This document shows, in pieces, positions 17,880 through 63,156 of a DNA stretch of 64,000 nt; positions within the stretch are counted from its first letter, which is position 1; every line of letters begins with the position of its first letter. Source of the DNA: Synechococcus sp. (GTDB taxonomy: Bacteria > Cyanobacteriota > Cyanobacteriia > PCC-6307 > Cyanobiaceae); the NCBI GenBank assembly GCA_047284725.1, contig JBJBEO010000001.1, forward strand, positions 1,464,203 through 1,528,202, given 5' to 3'. The notes beneath the pieces were generated by a model that had not been told where the DNA came from, made no database searches, and saw nothing but the letters and a program-made list of their open reading frames with translations. The position numbers and the translations under genes were made by a program.

Positions 17880-18101
17880 ACCGGCGGCGATGGTTCACAA
17901 AGGTCTGACTCCATCGTCTGGATCGGTGAGAGCAAAGCAATACACCAGTTGGGAAACGGCTGGTAGCGGTGCAGACAACACCATGGCTGACCGGGCTCGC
18001 CTTTACCCGGATTTCATTCTTGCCATGCTCATTGTTACAAGCAGCATGATGAGGCAACCGCAGTTCCTGCGCTGTGAGCGTTGCTTTGCGGAATGACAAC
18101 C

Positions 18102-18344
18102 ATGAAAGGCCATGCCTCCACTGCCAGGATGACCGACTGGCTCTCCATCCCATTCGCCGTCATCATCACTGCCACGGCCTTCCCCCTTGCCAGCCACGGG
18201 CACAGCAGAGGCCTCTACCAGTCCCAAGCTGAAGCTGAACAACGGGCCAAGGAGATTGGTTGCACGACTGTTCATCAGAACAACGGGAAATGGATGCCCT
18301 GCACCGATGAGCGGGAACTCCACCAGCAACTTCGCAAGCAATGA
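18102..18344 (+). CDS. Small secreted DUF3721-like protein
   Basis: Signal peptide, then HGHS and core YQSQAEAEQRAKEIGCTTVHQNNGKWMPC; exact start uncertain. Confidence 0.75.
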   Translation: MKGHASTARMTDWLSIPFAVIITATAFPLASHGHSRGLYQSQAEAEQRAKEIGCTTVHQNNGKWMPCTDERELHQQLRKQ

Positions 18345-56113: not shown

Positions 56114-56629
56114 ATGCGCCTGCATTTCATACCGATCCACGTTTTCCGCGAAACACCGGCGGTGACGTTCTTTGATGCCGGAGTGACCGGAGCCAACGGC
56201 ACCGATGTAGTGGCCCATCACGGAGCCGCCATCTCGCCACCCGATGACGACGGCTTCGCCCAGTACTACGTGCATCAACACCAGATTGATCACAATCTCG
56301 TACTTGAAGGCCAGCGCACGTTCACCCTGCTCAATCCCACTTGGAGCCAACCGCATCACGTGGTGGAGCTAACACGGGTCATGGGTGCCCTTGAAATTCC
56401 GAAGGGCACCTATCACCGCTCTGTGTCGGGTGAGGCCGGCAGCACGGTACTGAACCAATCCATCCGCGACGAGCACTTCGACTTTCACACCGAATTCATT
56501 CCGGTGAGCCTGCGCAATCGTCCTGATCTACAGGCGCTTCTCGAAACCCCTCCCTGTCTATGGAGTTGGCATGACGGCCACATCCAGCGGCGTTGTCGAG
56601 AAAAAAGCTATCTCCCTGTAAAGGGATAA
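56114..56629 (+). CDS. Cupin-fold-like hypothetical protein
   Basis: GGAG SD; YVHQHQIDHN and LEIPKGTYHRS resemble the two cupin metal motifs. Confidence 0.65.
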   Translation: MRLHFIPIHVFRETPAVTFFDAGVTGANGTDVVAHHGAAISPPDDDGFAQYYVHQHQIDHNLVLEGQRTFTLLNPTWSQPHHVVELTRVMGALEIPKGTYHRSVSGEAGSTVLNQSIRDEHFDFHTEFIPVSLRNRPDLQALLETPPCLWSWHDGHIQRRCREKSYLPVKG

Positions 56630-56697
56630 CCGCCTGAGCCAGGACCAATAATCAAGACCCCCATCAATGCAGAGAAGGGGGTGCACCTTGTGGAGGT

Positions 56698-57039
56698 TCA
56701 GCTCCAGCCGTTGGCGGCCTGTTGCTCCACATAGGCAGCAACATCAGAGATCTGAGTCTCGGTGAGGGTGCCGATAAAAGCAGGCATCTCGTTGAGGCCG
56801 TAGGTGACCTGAGCAACGATTGCACTTTCGTGGCCGTTGTTGTACTGCGCCAGATAAGTCTTGAGGTCGTCTTGCTTGAGGGTGTGCTCGCCATTCACCA
56901 CATTGCCGCCTCCGGCATGGCAGGCAGCGCAGTTGGCAGAAAACACCTTGGCTCCGTTCGCAACATCACCAGCGGATGCTGAAAGAGGAGCTGTGATCAG
57001 GATGACCAGAGCTGCAAGGACAGACAGAAGAGCACGCAT
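56698..57039 (-). CDS. petJ: Cytochrome c6
   Basis: Signal peptide ending [16 protein letters not shown] heme site, QVTYG, axial Met in EMPAF. Confidence 0.9.
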
Positions 57040-57127
57040 TGGGAGAAGCGTCGCACTAGCGCCATTGTTGGCACCTGCAGCGAGCCCCGAGGGCACTCAG
57101 CTGCAGAACGTCATATCCCGAGGATCC

Positions 57128-57763
57128 TCACGCCGCCAGTGCTGACCAAGCCAACGACGATCCAAGGCCAATCCACACCAGGGCAGCAATGAAACGGCCC
57201 TGGTTGCCAAGCCAGCCAGCGATCTGTCGCGCGAAGGCTGTGACGATCAGCAGCACAGCACCTTGGCTGAGCAGCAGGCCAGCGCCATAGGCGAGCAGTG
57301 GGGTCGGTTCAGCACCCACCACCATCGAACCGAGCAGATATCCATGCAACCCGATCAGTGGAAGAAGGAGAGCCGCCGGCACTACACCAAGGGCGATACA
57401 ACCCTCCACAGCCAGCGAAAGAGCCACAGCCACTTCAGCGATGGAGGAGAAGCTCGGCGCCAAGGGGACCAGCTGGGAGAGCAGGCTGCCGCCCAGCCCA
57501 AGGGCGAGCAACGGCAAAATCCAGCGGAGGGGACGCTTCAGCCCCAAAAACGCCAGTGCCAGAAGAAACAACAAGTGATCAGGGCCGAGCAGAGGGTGAC
57601 CCAGACCGCTGATCAGGCCCTGGACGGGAGTCAGAGAAGACGCCTCGACACCCTCGAACGGATGGTGTGCCAATGCTGGAGAGGCCCCCGCCAGAACAAG
57701 GAGCAGGGCGGCAGACACAGGCCGGACGCGGTCTGCACAACAAGCAAAAGCGCTGATTCTCAA
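57128..57763 (-). CDS. HupE/UreJ family Co/Ni transporter
   Basis: Signal peptide, mature N-terminus HHPF, GLGHPLLGPDHL, LHGY; lies behind a cobalamin riboswitch. Confidence 0.88.
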   Translation of the reverse strand: MRISAFACCADRVRPVSAALLLVLAGASPALAHHPFEGVEASSLTPVQGLISGLGHPLLGPDHLLFLLALAFLGLKRPLRWILPLLALGLGGSLLSQLVPLAPSFSSIAEVAVALSLAVEGCIALGVVPAALLLPLIGLHGYLLGSMVVGAEPTPLLAYGAGLLLSQGAVLLIVTAFARQIAGWLGNQGRFIAALVWIGLGSSLAWSALAA

Positions 57764-57765
57764 AA

Positions 57766-57906
57766 GTCGATCCTCGTCGATGGATGATCTCGGCGGGCGT
57801 TCTGACTGACGGATCCAGACGGATCCGGTTCACAGCTGCGGGACAGTGACGGACTTTCACCGTGCTTTCCCCCTTACCTCCAGAGGCTGATCACTCCTGG
57901 AACCGA
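57766..57906 (-). promoter_or_regulatory. Cobalamin riboswitch (copy 1, upstream of hupE/ureJ)
   Basis: Minus strand GGTTCC...GGGGGAAAGCACGGTGAAAGTCCGTCACTGTCCCGCAGCTGTGA...AGTCAGAACGCCCGCC, then a P13-like hairpin TCGA-CGAGGA-TCGA holding the SD. Confidence 0.92.
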
Positions 57907-57967
57907 ACCCCTGTTCTACTTCAGGGTGATCATTCTGCTGTGCAAAGCAGTCATTCGATGGGCTGCA

Positions 57968-58270
57968 TCAGTGCTCAGCATGGCCTCCCATGGGATGCGA
58001 AGCACAGGGCATCCATTGATCACCCATCGGATGCGCTCCCTTGCATCCGAACAGAGGCGCTGCTTTCTCTGCTTCTGAGCGCGTGGGATACATCGCACGA
58101 ATCCCACCGTTGTCTGACCGGGACTTGGTGGGTGCCTCCATGGTCAAGGTGACTCCGGTGTGATCGTCACCTGGCACATGGTGCGCCTGAACAGAGAGAT
58201 TTCCTGCCAAGAGAGAAGCCAGCCCCAGGAAGGAGCCGAGAACATTGAGACCCACTGATGAAGACGTCAT
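57968..58270 (-). CDS. Small secreted His-rich DUF3721-like protein
   Basis: ATG 58270; signal peptide ending VQA, mature HHVPGDDH..., core YPTRSEAEKAAPLFGCKGAHPMGDQWMPC, tail HPMGGHAEH. Confidence 0.8.
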   Translation of the reverse strand: MTSSSVGLNVLGSFLGLASLLAGNLSVQAHHVPGDDHTGVTLTMEAPTKSRSDNGGIRAMYPTRSEAEKAAPLFGCKGAHPMGDQWMPCASHPMGGHAEH

Positions 58271-58271
58271 T

Positions 58272-58424
58272 GATCGATCCGCGTCGATAGAGAACAGAGC
58301 AGAGATGTCGGCGGGCGTTCTGACTGACGGATCCAGACGGATCCGGTTCACAGCTGCGGGACAGTGACGGACTTTCACCGTGCTTTCCCCCTTACCTCCA
58401 GAGGCTGATCACTCCTGGAACCGA
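58272..58424 (-). promoter_or_regulatory. Cobalamin riboswitch (copy 2, upstream of the DUF3721-like gene)
   Basis: 58308-58424 is identical to 57790-57906 (117 bp); P13-like hairpin ATCGA-CGCGGA-TCGAT immediately before the ATG. Confidence 0.92.
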
Positions 58425-58449
58425 GGGGTTCTGTCTACACCACCAGGGA

Positions 58450-59307
58450 TCAACTGGGTAGAGACGGAGGCCGCCGCAAGATGCCGTGATGGGGAGCGAA
58501 CAGAAATGCGATCACAAACAATCCGGTTTGCACCAGCACGATGCAGCCTGCGGGGGAGCGATCGCTCCAGTAGCTGATGAACACTCCGAGCAAGCTTGAA
58601 ATCACGCTGCTGGCCACCGCCAACACGGTCATGCGGTCAAAGCGATCTGTGAGCAGATACGCGGTGGCCCCTGGAGTGACGAGCATGGCAACCACCAGGA
58701 TGATGCCCACAGTCTGGAGGCCTGCGACTGCGGCCAACGACAGAATCGAGAGCAACAGATAGTGCAGGAGTCCTGTGTTGATGCCGATCGATCGGGCATG
58801 GGTGGGATCGAAACAGAACATCAACAGATCGCGCCGAAACACCAGCAACACAGCGAACACCACGCCGGAAATCACGAGGGTCTGCTGGATATCGCTGCCA
58901 GAAATGCCGAGGACATTGCCGAAGAGGATGTGAAACAGATCAATGTTGCTACGCACATTCGACACAAGCACCAGGCCAAGGGCAAAGAAACCTGTGAAGA
59001 CCAGGCCGATCACCGTGTCTTCTTTGATGCGTGATTTCTGCTGAACGAATCCGATCGTGGCCACCGACCCCACGCCAAAGACGAAGGCTCCCAACGAGAA
59101 GGGAAGACCAAGGGCATACGCGATGACCACACCGGGCAGAACCGCATGGGAGACGGCATCCCCCATCAGAGCCCAGCCCTTGAGGGTCATGTAGCACGAC
59201 AACAATCCACAAACGGATCCCACCAGGGCACTGATCAACAATGCCCTCACCATGAATTCATGGCGGAGGGGCTCCATCACCCAGTCGATCAGCACGAAGT
59301 CGTCCAC
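58450..59307 (-). CDS. Mn/Zn/Fe ABC transporter permease (MntB-like)
   Basis: ALMGDAVSHAVLPG, IKEDTVIG, HILFGNVLG. Confidence 0.9.
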   Translation of the reverse strand: MDDFVLIDWVMEPLRHEFMVRALLISALVGSVCGLLSCYMTLKGWALMGDAVSHAVLPGVVIAYALGLPFSLGAFVFGVGSVATIGFVQQKSRIKEDTVIGLVFTGFFALGLVLVSNVRSNIDLFHILFGNVLGISGSDIQQTLVISGVVFAVLLVFRRDLLMFCFDPTHARSIGINTGLLHYLLLSILSLAAVAGLQTVGIILVVAMLVTPGATAYLLTDRFDRMTVLAVASSVISSLLGVFISYWSDRSPAGCIVLVQTGLFVIAFLFAPHHGILRRPPSLPS

Positions 59308-59404: not shown

Positions 59405-60166
59405 TCAGGTCAGTGGATCGAGTGAACTTGTTCCTGTCAGAAGATCAGGGGGCACTCCACCAAACGTGAGCGAAAGATTTTCCGGAGTGAACACTTCAGA
59501 GGTTTCTCCGTAAGCAAGCACGGTTTTATTGATCAACACCACGAGATCGCAGAACGCGCGGACATGACTGAGATCGTGGGTGGAGATCAGAATGGTTCGT
59601 CCCTCTTCTCGAAACTGAAGGAAGAGATCGGCCATCAGCTTTTCGGTGCGCACATCCACGCCGTTGAAGGGCTCATCCAACAGGAGCACCGAGGACCCTT
59701 GCGCAATGGCACGGGCCAAAAAAGCTCGTTTGCGCTGCCCACCGGACAACGCCCCGATCGGCCGGTCGCGCAGATCGAGCAAATGCACCAAGGACAGCGC
59801 CTCGCGAACAGCAACCCGATCAGCACGGGCCGGGATGCGCAGAGGATTCATGGCGCCATAGCGGCCCATCATCACCACATCCCAAACAGAAACAGGAAAA
59901 TTGTTATCAATCCCCTCGCTCTGCGGCACGTAAGCCACTGCCTGCTCCCGCTGAGCCTCGACAACGCGTAAACCATTGATACGGATGTGACCGCGAGATG
60001 GCCTCACGAATCCAGTGAGGGCCTTGAACAAGGTTGATTTTCCGGCCCCGTTCATGCCGACGAGTCCGCAGATGCAGCCCGCAGGCAAGGCCAGTGTCGC
60101 GTCGTGCAAGGCGACCGTGCCGTTGTAATTCACACACACGCGGTCCGCTTCGATGCGCATCGTCAT
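59405..60166 (-). CDS. Mn/Zn/Fe ABC transporter ATPase (MntA-like)
   Basis: GMNGAGKST, LSGGQRKR, LLDEP, STH. Confidence 0.92.
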   Translation of the reverse strand: MTMRIEADRVCVNYNGTVALHDATLALPAGCICGLVGMNGAGKSTLFKALTGFVRPSRGHIRINGLRVVEAQREQAVAYVPQSEGIDNNFPVSVWDVVMMGRYGAMNPLRIPARADRVAVREALSLVHLLDLRDRPIGALSGGQRKRAFLARAIAQGSSVLLLDEPFNGVDVRTEKLMADLFLQFREEGRTILISTHDLSHVRAFCDLVVLINKTVLAYGETSEVFTPENLSLTFGGVPPDLLTGTSSLDPLT

Positions 60167-61080
60167 GGCTGCTGACCCGGCGGATTCAGACCCTGGCGAA
60201 TGAGTCTCACATTGTGGCGCTGCAGCTCAAGCAGGGTGGAGGCCGGACCGTTGTGATCCGAAAGAGAGTCCACATAGAACGTGCCGCCAAAGGCAGCACC
60301 AGCAGCGGAGGCCACCTGGCGCTGCACCTTGTCGCTGACGGTGCTTTCGCAGAACACGGCAGGCACCCCCGACTGCTTCACCGTTTCAATCAAGCGGGCC
60401 ATGCGCTTCGGCGTGGCCTGGCTCTCCGCATTCACTGGCCAGAGGTAAGCCTCTTGAAGGCCGTAATCCTTCGCCAGGTAGGTGAACGCTCCCTCACAGC
60501 TCACCAGCAACCGCTGCCGAGGTGGAATGGTGGAGAGAGACTCTCTGAGCTCCTGATCCAGCTGCTGCAACTGCTGCTGATAGGCCTTGGCATTACGGCG
60601 ATAGGTCGGAGCCCCATCGGGATCCAGGGTGATGAAAGCCTCGACAATTCGATCCACATAGGCCTGAGCCCGCTTGGGAGACATCCAGGCGTGGGGATTA
60701 GGGCGGCCGGCGTAGGCATCCCCTTCAATCAACAGCGGTTCCATTCCCTCCGTGAGGGTGACCGTGGGCACATCTCCTGCTGCTGCGGTGAAACGCCGAG
60801 CCCAAAGCTCAAGGCCCAAACCATTTTCAAGAATCAACTGGGCTGAAGTCGCCTGCTCCAGATCGCTGGGCGTGGGTTCATAGCCATGGATTTCCGCTCC
60901 CTGTTTGGTGATCGATTTCACCCGTAGACGATCTCCCGCAACGTTGGAGGCCATATCGGCCAACACGGTGAAAGTGGTCAACACCAGTGGGCGGGAATCC
61001 TGAAGTCGCTCGCGCTCCGTCAGAGGAGCCCTGCAAGCGTTGAGGGCAATCGCCACAACCAAACCCGCCACTGGCGGCAT
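60163..61080 (-). CDS. Mn/Zn/Fe ABC substrate-binding lipoprotein (MntC/PsaA-like)
   Basis: Lipobox LNAC; ligands EIH, NPHAW, CEGAF, DSL (His/His/Glu/Asp, Mn/Fe type); start uncertain. Confidence 0.88.
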   Translation of the reverse strand: MPPVAGLVVAIALNACRAPLTERERLQDSRPLVLTTFTVLADMASNVAGDRLRVKSITKQGAEIHGYEPTPSDLEQATSAQLILENGLGLELWARRFTAAAGDVPTVTLTEGMEPLLIEGDAYAGRPNPHAWMSPKRAQAYVDRIVEAFITLDPDGAPTYRRNAKAYQQQLQQLDQELRESLSTIPPRQRLLVSCEGAFTYLAKDYGLQEAYLWPVNAESQATPKRMARLIETVKQSGVPAVFCESTVSDKVQRQVASAAGAAFGGTFYVDSLSDHNGPASTLLELQRHNVRLIRQGLNPPGQQP

Positions 61081-61219
61081 CCAACGGGATCGATACAGGG
61101 AGAAAACGAGATCAGAGGCGACCGAAGTCAGCCTAAAAGATCCAAAACAGCACACCCCAAAACGCAACCACGACCGCCAGGAGACCACTGTGGATCCGGC
61201 CGCAGAACCGTCACCCTCC

Positions 61220-61238
61220 AACTGGCACAGTGCCAGTT
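61220..61238. promoter_or_regulatory. Perfect 9-1-9 palindrome upstream of Yfr2 (candidate GntR-type operator)
   Basis: AACTGGCAC-A-GTGCCAGTT ends 17 nt before the Yfr2 5' motif. Confidence 0.65.
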
Positions 61239-61255
61239 CAGGCATCATGTTGATT

Positions 61256-61349
61256 GTGTGAGGAGATTCTCAGAGAACGGAGTCGAAACAAGGTCAGACG
61301 CCCGTTCTGTGATCACCACCCGGCTCCGCCTTCGGCGGAGCTTTTTTTT
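61256..61349 (+). ncRNA. yfr2: Yfr2-family small RNA
   Basis: 5' GTGTGAGGAG motif; hairpin CAGAGAACGG-AGTC-[GAAACAAGGTCA]-GAC-GC-CCGTTCTGTG with the 12-nt GAAAC loop; followed by an intrinsic terminator with no plus-strand CDS upstream. Confidence 0.85.
61323..61349 (+). terminator. Rho-independent terminator of Yfr2
   Basis: GCTCCGCC-ttc-GGCGGAGC followed by T8. Confidence 0.88.
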
Positions 61350-63094: not shown

Positions 63095-63101
63095 ACGAAG
63101 A

Positions 63102-63156
63102 CGTTGAGCCCTCTCAGGGCTGCAGTTCGTTCCACGCCAAGCAACGGGGGCGTGGG
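63102..63156 (+). promoter_or_regulatory. Glutamine-II (Downstream-peptide) riboswitch
   Basis: CGTTG-A-GCCCTctcAGGGC-TGCAGT...CCACGCC-AAG-CAACG-GG-GGCGTGG: P1, P2 and pseudoknot match the Downstream-peptide motif. Confidence 0.88.

Follow-up and report, generated by a model that had tools for sequence, protein, structure and literature searches.

A DUF3721 gene of Synechococcus carries a copy of the hupE cobalamin riboswitch and may encode a periplasmic metal-capture protein

We examined a gene for a small, apparently exported protein of the DUF3721 family that is located directly upstream of hupE, which encodes a predicted cobalt importer, in Synechococcus sp. (assembly GCA_047284725.1). 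The stretch of DNA analyzed, hereafter the window, spans 64,000 nt of contig JBJBEO010000001.1 (positions 1,464,203-1,528,202 of the forward strand) and resembles DNA of a marine picocyanobacterium in its G+C content of 57%, a Glutamine-II riboswitch and a Cyano-1 RNA; its nearest relatives in a one-genome-per-species scan were Synechococcus genomes. The locus is read from the minus strand and, in the direction of transcription, was found to consist of a cobalamin riboswitch aptamer (aptamer 1, 58293..58440), the expression platform of this riboswitch (58271..58292), the DUF3721 gene (57968..58270, with an ATG start codon at 58270 and 100 codons plus stop, encoding protein P0001), a second cobalamin riboswitch aptamer (aptamer 2, 57775..57922) and hupE (57128..57763, 211 codons with a TTG start). 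A first-pass annotation of the sequence had described an exported-looking protein of 100 amino acids behind its own cobalamin riboswitch, followed by a hupE/ureJ gene under a second one, and had proposed that the small protein captures cobalt. The description was borne out, with the correction that its end coordinate (58424) leaves riboswitch 1 short of its first 16 nt. The observation at this locus is real and well above chance.

Both aptamers were matched over the full length of the Rfam cobalamin model (RF00174, positions 1-189 of 189) and above its gathering score of 31.5 bits, aptamer 1 at 49.7 bits (E 2.1e-09) and aptamer 2 at 52.3 bits (E 3.8e-10). The two share 117 consecutive identical bases, and each ends in the same expression platform, TCGACGNGGATCGA, a short hairpin (ATCGA-CGCGGA-TCGAT ahead of the DUF3721 gene) that holds a Shine-Dalgarno-like GGA in its loop 7 nt before the start codon. 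This platform was also found ahead of hupE in three related loci (L008, L009 and L021). The 5' flanks and linkers of the two riboswitches differ despite the identical core. Based on the run of 117 identical bases and the common hupE-type platform, riboswitch 1 duplicates that of hupE along with its expression platform. No terminator-like site was detected after either aptamer, which points to control at the level of translation. A promoter scan of positions 56600-58800 returned 0 sigma-70-like sites, a weak test for cyanobacteria, and the stop codon of the permease gene of an upstream ATP-binding cassette (ABC) importer operon, here termed mntCAB, is positioned 9 nt ahead of riboswitch 1; thus, the small gene may share a transcript with mntCAB, the riboswitch acting as its gate. 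Minimum free energy folds of the two leaders were uninformative (z-scores of 0.25 and 0.14).

The downstream permease was assigned to the HupE_UreJ family (PF04955, 46 bits, cut-off 23) and scored below the cut-off for HupE/UreJ-2 (PF13795, 21.7 bits, cut-off 24.5). It carries the HPxxGxDH motif, given as the HupE/UreJ signature in the section of a review on these permeases (PMC7689651), in the form HPLLGPDH within the first transmembrane segment. Its signal peptide, judged by eye, is predicted to be cleaved between ALA and HHPF, in agreement with the mature HH terminus noted in the first-pass annotation. Both AHHPF and HP..G.DH were kept in 40/40 aligned HupE homologues, with 594 homologues found in total. 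In the relevant sections of two reviews (PMC7689651, PMC4284471), cyanobacterial HupE under a B12 riboswitch is regarded as a cobalt importer, as the first-pass annotation had stated, and a Synechocystis hupE mutant is described as rescued by cobalt or methionine. By analogy to the Synechocystis work cited there, and given its riboswitch, HupE of the window is probably a cobalt importer as well. It resembles the B12-riboswitch HupE/UreJ permeases of Synechocystis and marine cyanobacteria in hidden Markov model match, signature, signal peptide with mature His, and riboswitch. The known system is a single gene, whereas the window adds an unrelated exported protein with its own riboswitch copy directly upstream. 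No description of a second exported protein with a copy of the hupE riboswitch was found in the literature searched on HupE and cobalt, and no mention was found in a literature search for 'DUF3721'.

The likeness of the small protein to DUF3721 proved to be true family membership. P0001 matched PF12518 at residues 61-93 with 64.1 bits (cut-off 27, E 9.5e-18) over profile positions 1-33 of 33, and the family was present in 28/28 of its homologues. As read from the sequence, P0001 is composed of a predicted Sec signal peptide (residues 1-29, 58184..58270, ending in VQA and likewise judged by eye), a predicted mature N-terminus HHVPGDDH (residues 30-37, 58160..58183), a DUF3721 core of helix and beta-hairpin (residues 61-93, 57992..58090) with the arrangement C76-x3-H80-x8-C89-x2-H92, and the tail HPMGGHAEH; the mature start, the C-x3-H-x8-C core and the His/Met tail had all been pointed out in the first pass. 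In an alignment of 29 DUF3721 sequences, C76, G78, G83, W86, M87, P88, C89 and H92 showed no variation, and H80 and M82 very little. Long forms of the protein, found in marine Synechococcus, have HHVPGDDH at the predicted mature N-terminus. Of 23 such proteins, 22 have HH after an A-x-A-like site (the exception, P0158, has RH) and 21 have the arm pattern H-x3-G-x-D-H. The spacing of this pattern is that of the HupE signature HPxxGxDH, a likeness that is best taken as a lead and not as a test, since it was spotted once the data had been seen. AlphaFold2, run with the 29-sequence alignment, gave a mean predicted local distance difference test score (pLDDT) of 64 for P0001, with a core of helix 64-74 and beta-hairpin 79-88 (pLDDT 86-91 for residues 61-90), a helix at residues 11-21 inside the predicted signal peptide, and an unstructured arm at residues 30-60. 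Prediction of a complex between HupE residues 33-211 and P0001 residues 30-100 scored 0.00 (mark 0.32), a 'no answer' that counts neither way. A tblastn search of P0001 against a phage collection gave no match.

We propose that P0001 is a periplasmic metal-capture protein that was recruited into the B12-repressed cobalt-uptake regulon and most likely gathers Co(II) for HupE, an explanation to which we give close to, but short of, an even chance. The strongest argument for a cobalt role is that the copied switch elsewhere always guards hupE and that genes under this riboswitch normally serve B12 supply. By this model, plentiful (pseudo)cobalamin would occupy both aptamers and translation of both open reading frames (ORFs) would fall; when B12 is scarce, the DUF3721 protein and HupE would both be made. 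Mature P0001, beginning with His-His, would use its flexible HHVPGDDH arm and its His/Met/Cys core to catch periplasmic Co(II), and the captured ion would raise the local supply for the HupE permease. Cobalt binding by P0001 and hand-over to HupE would resemble the role proposed for the N-terminal-His anglerase domains that are fused to HupE/UreJ-2. In the sections of the anglerase report that describe them (PMC12537917), Ang-1 and Ang-2 represent periplasmic metal-binding domains of this type that are proposed to fish for metal and feed the channel, and for which binding of several metals, copper among them, was demonstrated; Ang-2 is modelled there as a beta-sandwich with a linker that starts near residue 175, so the domains would be roughly 175 residues in size. 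Like the anglerases as described in these sections, P0001 appears to be exported, has His first after its predicted cleavage site (VQA/HH, by eye), is genetically coupled to a HupE-family permease and may act by metal capture and hand-over. Unlike them, it has a gene to itself and is not fused to a PF13795 permease, its link to cobalt comes through the riboswitch alone, and its mature form of 71 residues is predicted to be a disordered arm with a helix-hairpin core, in contrast to a large folded domain. Fold and profile searches against the Protein Data Bank (PDB) detected no sequence or fold relation of P0001 to anglerases. P0001 may be viewed as an analogue of the metal-capture domains linked to transporters, one that stands alone and was recruited through a riboswitch.

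Several observations, presented here and in the paragraphs below, weigh against this cobalt-capture reading. Rarity of the riboswitch linkage is one of them. The one-genome-per-species scan yielded 124 relatives, from which 80 loci (numbered from L001) were kept with 4-kb flanks and searched with Rfam at the gathering threshold. Cobalamin riboswitches were detected in 6/80 loci (L008, L009, L015, L021, L026 and L028), all six ahead of HupE-like genes, and 0/80 loci had one directly ahead of the DUF3721 gene. A permissive Rfam search (E<=1) of L001-L007 and L072 likewise uncovered no cobalamin riboswitch remnant. DUF3721 genes are seldom under B12 control. This absence from the other 80 loci would fit a riboswitch 1 that arose by recent duplication, is neutral and does not regulate the DUF3721 gene, and the core identical to that of riboswitch 2 means that its intactness could reflect recent copying. 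However, the flanks have diverged while the core remained identical, and related sequences carry traces of the same arrangement. Two proteins from metagenomes, P0003 (99% identical to P0001) and P0007 (68%), were called as ORFs that open with the riboswitch's 3' half in translation, and their N-terminal extensions include the B12 box as VRTPA or VRMPA, such that the B12-box codons (VRTPA) are conserved at the divergence of P0007. The leader of L001 (Synechococcus MIT S9451) has lost the aptamer core but still shows the platform and, in decayed form, the B12 box; it aligned to the 3' half of riboswitch 1 with a score of 65.6 compared to 35.4 +/- 5.9 for shuffled sequences (maximum 62 in 300), and the relic is detectable by pairwise alignment only. 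This decay by deletion reveals that unused riboswitch copies do not stay intact, and we consider a neutral duplicate most unlikely. P0003, P0007 and L001 together indicate that the riboswitch plus long form is an old arrangement, limited to one clade and lost in at least one line. The linkage is thus not unique to this strain; among the 80 loci, the DUF3721 gene was found near a HupE-like gene in 9/80, near CbiM in 1/80 and directly behind an Rfam-detected B12 riboswitch in none. Unnamed ORFs are listed with hupE among B12-regulated genes in the part of a 2007 metagenome riboswitch survey that covers this class (PMC2211319). As a separate observation, two Cyanobium-type loci (L026 1846-3671 and L028 4640-6647) have two different HupE-like genes and a third small membrane ORF beside a DUF3721 gene pair, with a cobalamin riboswitch ahead of just one of the two HupE-like genes.

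The upstream neighborhood also speaks against a dedicated cobalt role. The operon that precedes the small gene on the minus strand begins with a gene for an MntC-like periplasmic substrate-binding protein (60163..61248; ZnuA, PF01297, E 3.8e-84), the best solved relative of which is Synechocystis MntC (4irm_A, E 1.4e-102), and is therefore taken to encode a manganese-type importer. The mntA-like ATPase gene (59405..60166; ABC_tran, E 3.6e-29) had as its top NCBIfam match a manganese/iron ABC ATP-binding protein (E 1.5e-85, under the model cut-off), and the mntB-like permease gene (58450..59307) matched ABC-3 (PF00950, E 1.2e-84). The long form follows mntCAB, directly or past one extra ORF, in 9/9 loci as well as in the window; by comparison, hupE is downstream of the long form in just 2/9 (L008 and L009). 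The Pfam run on the neighborhoods left out L004 and L007, both of which are covered by the tblastn census of the 80 loci. P0001 could accordingly assist MntCAB as an accessory that buffers or chaperones Mn(II)/Zn(II) in the periplasm, and riboswitch 1 would then have arisen incidentally when the hupE leader was duplicated, for example in a duplication that limits mntCAB read-through into hupE. The constant position after the ZnuA/ABC_tran/ABC-3 operon, the closeness of the binding protein to MntC and the plausible co-transcription with mntCAB (9-nt gap, no promoter-like site) all favor such a role, as does the pairing of short forms of the protein with zur-like and ABC-3 genes in 13 further loci. 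Synteny between related Synechococcus genomes, however, is not independent evidence, and in L002 an EamA gene on the opposite strand separates the permease gene from the small gene. Cys, Met and His are, by general coordination chemistry, unusual ligands for Mn(II). Moreover, the riboswitch copy is complete, has its platform at the same 7-nt spacing and persists across the 68%-identity divergence of P0007, a combination that would scarcely be expected unless B12 control had been selected for. On balance, we regard the MntCAB accessory role as unlikely, though as the likeliest of the alternatives.

Three further features were noted in this neighborhood. A conserved ORF of about 197 codons without a Pfam match lies between the mntB-like permease gene and the long form in 6/9 loci (L002-L005, L007 and L008; e.g., L008 3282-3872) and is not found in the window. 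A conserved trio of genes for an ArsP_1 permease, a DUF1980 protein and a protein of about 461 amino acids, which may be another metal-related cluster, is positioned downstream of the long-form locus in L003 (4949-8008), L005, L006, L008, L009 and L025; within 4 kb of DUF3721 genes overall, ArsP_1 was detected in 10/80 loci, 9 of which also had DUF1980. A Cyano-1 RNA motif (RF01701, 44.9 bits) is present divergently just upstream of mntC in the window (61252-61320, plus strand) and likewise beside mntC in L001 (188-257, minus strand, 52.3 bits), with a third copy in L044 (3995-4059); its kept position beside the Mn importer operon may be a clue to the role of this RNA. The window additionally has a Glutamine-II riboswitch aptamer at 63099-63156 (plus strand, 53 bits, E 5.4e-10).

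The wider DUF3721 family is not specific to cobalt. A full profile search returned 351 DUF3721 clusters at 50% identity, and an ESM Atlas search returned DUF3721 clusters only. Short forms are composed of a signal or lipoprotein peptide, the DUF3721 core and a His-rich tail, and tails of this type, up to HHHHH, are common among cyanobacterial members. Behind the short-form gene there is usually another one, the product of which combines a membrane segment of GLTT repeats with DUF3721 at the C-terminus. The GLTT proteins (about 140-150 amino acids; L011 4193-4636, L051 3713-4135 and many Prochlorococcus loci) are conserved membrane proteins with an N-terminal HCGSKPKK motif, Gly-rich transmembrane segments of PF01744 and a His-rich linker, and pairs of short DUF3721 and GLTT-protein genes are located near zur-like and ABC-3 genes in 13 loci. 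In the census of neighborhoods within 4 kb, any metal-uptake gene was found in 29/80 loci, an ABC-3 permease gene of the Mn/Zn ABC type in 22/80, a FUR-family (zur-like) gene together with ABC-3 in 13/80, a HupE-like gene in 9/80 with several different arrangements, and CbiM with NikR in 1/80. The association with zur-like and ABC-3 genes counts against cobalt specificity. So does a second DUF3721 gene of the window (18081-18344, plus strand), which has no riboswitch; it encodes 87 amino acids with a signal-peptide-like N-terminus and the variant core GCTTVHQNNGKWMPCTDE (PF12518, 65.2 bits), and the ORF behind it (89 codons) matched PepSY_TM weakly, at E 4e-4 and under the model cut-off. At L013 3932-4411, one secreted protein has DUF3721 three times in tandem; its contig bears the label of an Asaia bogorensis metagenome-assembled genome and may be misbinned, since the sequence looks cyanobacterial.

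The abundance of ABC-3 neighbors calls to mind ZinT, a small periplasmic His-rich binder that is found beside ZnuABC, is far larger than P0001 and is regulated by Zur. Both cases have a small periplasmic His-rich protein beside a cluster-9 (ZnuA/MntC-type) ABC importer, and the ABC-3 permease, as the most frequent neighborhood of DUF3721 (22/80), matches the ZinT/ZnuABC arrangement. By contrast, ZinT and P0001 are not homologous, and ZinT is under Zur whereas P0001 is under a riboswitch. In the Zur regulon of strain WH8102, three uncharacterised genes (synw0968, 0972 and 0973) are placed beside znuABC in the sections of the report that concern them (PMC9337993); they are not identified there as DUF3721 genes.

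Fusions were sought by a Pfam scan of the 19 longest DUF3721 members. One (P0257) has DUF3721 fused to the extracellular N-terminus of a Ctr copper transporter, which reveals use of the module as a transporter-attached ectodomain, and another (P0252) has it inside a multicopper-oxidase/RTX protein. Four of the 19 are phage-type fusions (XkdF protease in two, ResIII helicase, and a 2'-5' RNA ligase/Acb1-like protein). Among the other 13, DUF3721 was found alone in 12, several of these with tandem repeats, and P0260 had no family match. None of the 19 had a HupE fusion, and a word search for longer or fused relatives of P0001, which is weak evidence, returned none. Taken together, the fusions and neighborhoods reveal DUF3721 to be a portable mini-domain that is often, not always, tied to metal uptake and is not cobalt-specific.

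The Ctr and multicopper-oxidase fusions point away from cobalt and toward copper. CusF and CopC copper chaperones use His/Met (and Trp) ligand sets, and DUF3721 proteins are similar in being small and exported, in their H, M, W, M set and in the Ctr fusion. P0001 might thus be a periplasmic copper binder in which H80, M82, W86 and M87 make up a CusF-like Cu(I) site, its adjacency to hupE being incidental. The invariance of W86, M87 and H92 and near-invariance of H80 and M82 are consistent with such a site. A cytochrome c6-like gene is located directly 3' of hupE (56698..57096, minus strand; NCBIfam Cytc6PetJCyano, E 1.1e-35, under the model cut-off) and a similar gene in 7/80 loci; cytochrome c6 is a copper-sparing alternative to plastocyanin. 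We treat this gene as a neighbor outside the proposed system. The copper-linked fusions, however, make up just 2/19 of the long proteins, the B12 riboswitch is without a known copper link, and no copper P-type ATPase, CopM or similar protein was seen in the annotated neighborhoods. P0001 gave no structural match to CusF or CopC, and its context is B12 and cobalt, not copper. Copper binding as the function of P0001 is therefore judged improbable.

The phage-type fusions, in turn, suggest a general small structural domain, and the structure searches also fail to favor metal capture. The HHVPGDDH stretch has a pLDDT of 52-56, a low-confidence model of the N-terminal arm. When the AlphaFold2 model of P0001 was compared to the PDB, nothing was found at E<=0.001, and the look-alikes were weak matches to disulfide-stapled mini-proteins (best E 3.2); a profile of the P0001-family alignment gave no match to PDB sequences at E<=1. 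The two Cys of P0001 may form a disulfide instead of binding metal. These findings raise the alternative that DUF3721 is a structural knuckle (C-H-C-H, held by a disulfide or structural zinc), such as an envelope-binding or protein-protein module, with a function other than carrying metals and with B12 regulation serving some other B12-related role. Fusion to proteins that are cytoplasmic in the phage cases would suit a knuckle, as would the mini-proteins being the sole fold look-alikes and the pattern in divergent members, where H80 or H92 is replaced and both Cys and the WMPC/WAPC stretch are retained. A purely structural module is harder to reconcile with the metal-uptake genes in 29/80 loci, the His-rich tails common in cyanobacterial members and the N-terminal His-His arm conserved in 21/23 long forms, and we hold this explanation to be as improbable as that of copper binding.

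We thus retain, at the strength given above, the view that P0001 was recruited to gather Co(II) for HupE. Cobalt capture is a reasonable interpretation for this clade, but as a function of the family at large, which is how the first-pass annotation had offered it, it goes too far: the long form is tied more tightly to mntCAB (9/9) than to hupE (2/9), and other members are found beside zur-like and ABC-3 genes (13/80) or fused to Ctr, multicopper-oxidase or phage proteins. In other lineages, the DUF3721 module seems to work for importers of the Mn/Zn ABC type, for Ni/Co systems or for copper transporters. A broader, rather doubtful possibility is that DUF3721 is a hitherto unrecognized family of tiny periplasmic 'metal-fishing' modules of the dominant ocean picocyanobacteria, whether free, GLTT-anchored or transporter-fused, that deliver scarce divalent metals to different importers; the long form would then be a Co(II) shuttle with an arm that copies the HupE signature and with B12 feedback through a captured hupE riboswitch.

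In the open ocean few essential metals are scarcer than cobalt, which marine Synechococcus and Prochlorococcus require for (pseudo)cobalamin. Beyond HupE, cobalt acquisition by marine picocyanobacteria is poorly defined, and a B12-switched, exported putative metal binder beside hupE is a concrete candidate for a periplasmic cobalt-capture step. The locus is also a clean natural case in which a riboswitch was duplicated with its platform and a neighboring gene recruited into the regulon, with decay of the copy in L001. For DUF3721, with its 351 clusters, these results provide a first functional handle. If P0001 is indeed a Co(II) shuttle, it would supply one protein of the long-sought system by which marine Synechococcus acquires cobalt with high affinity.

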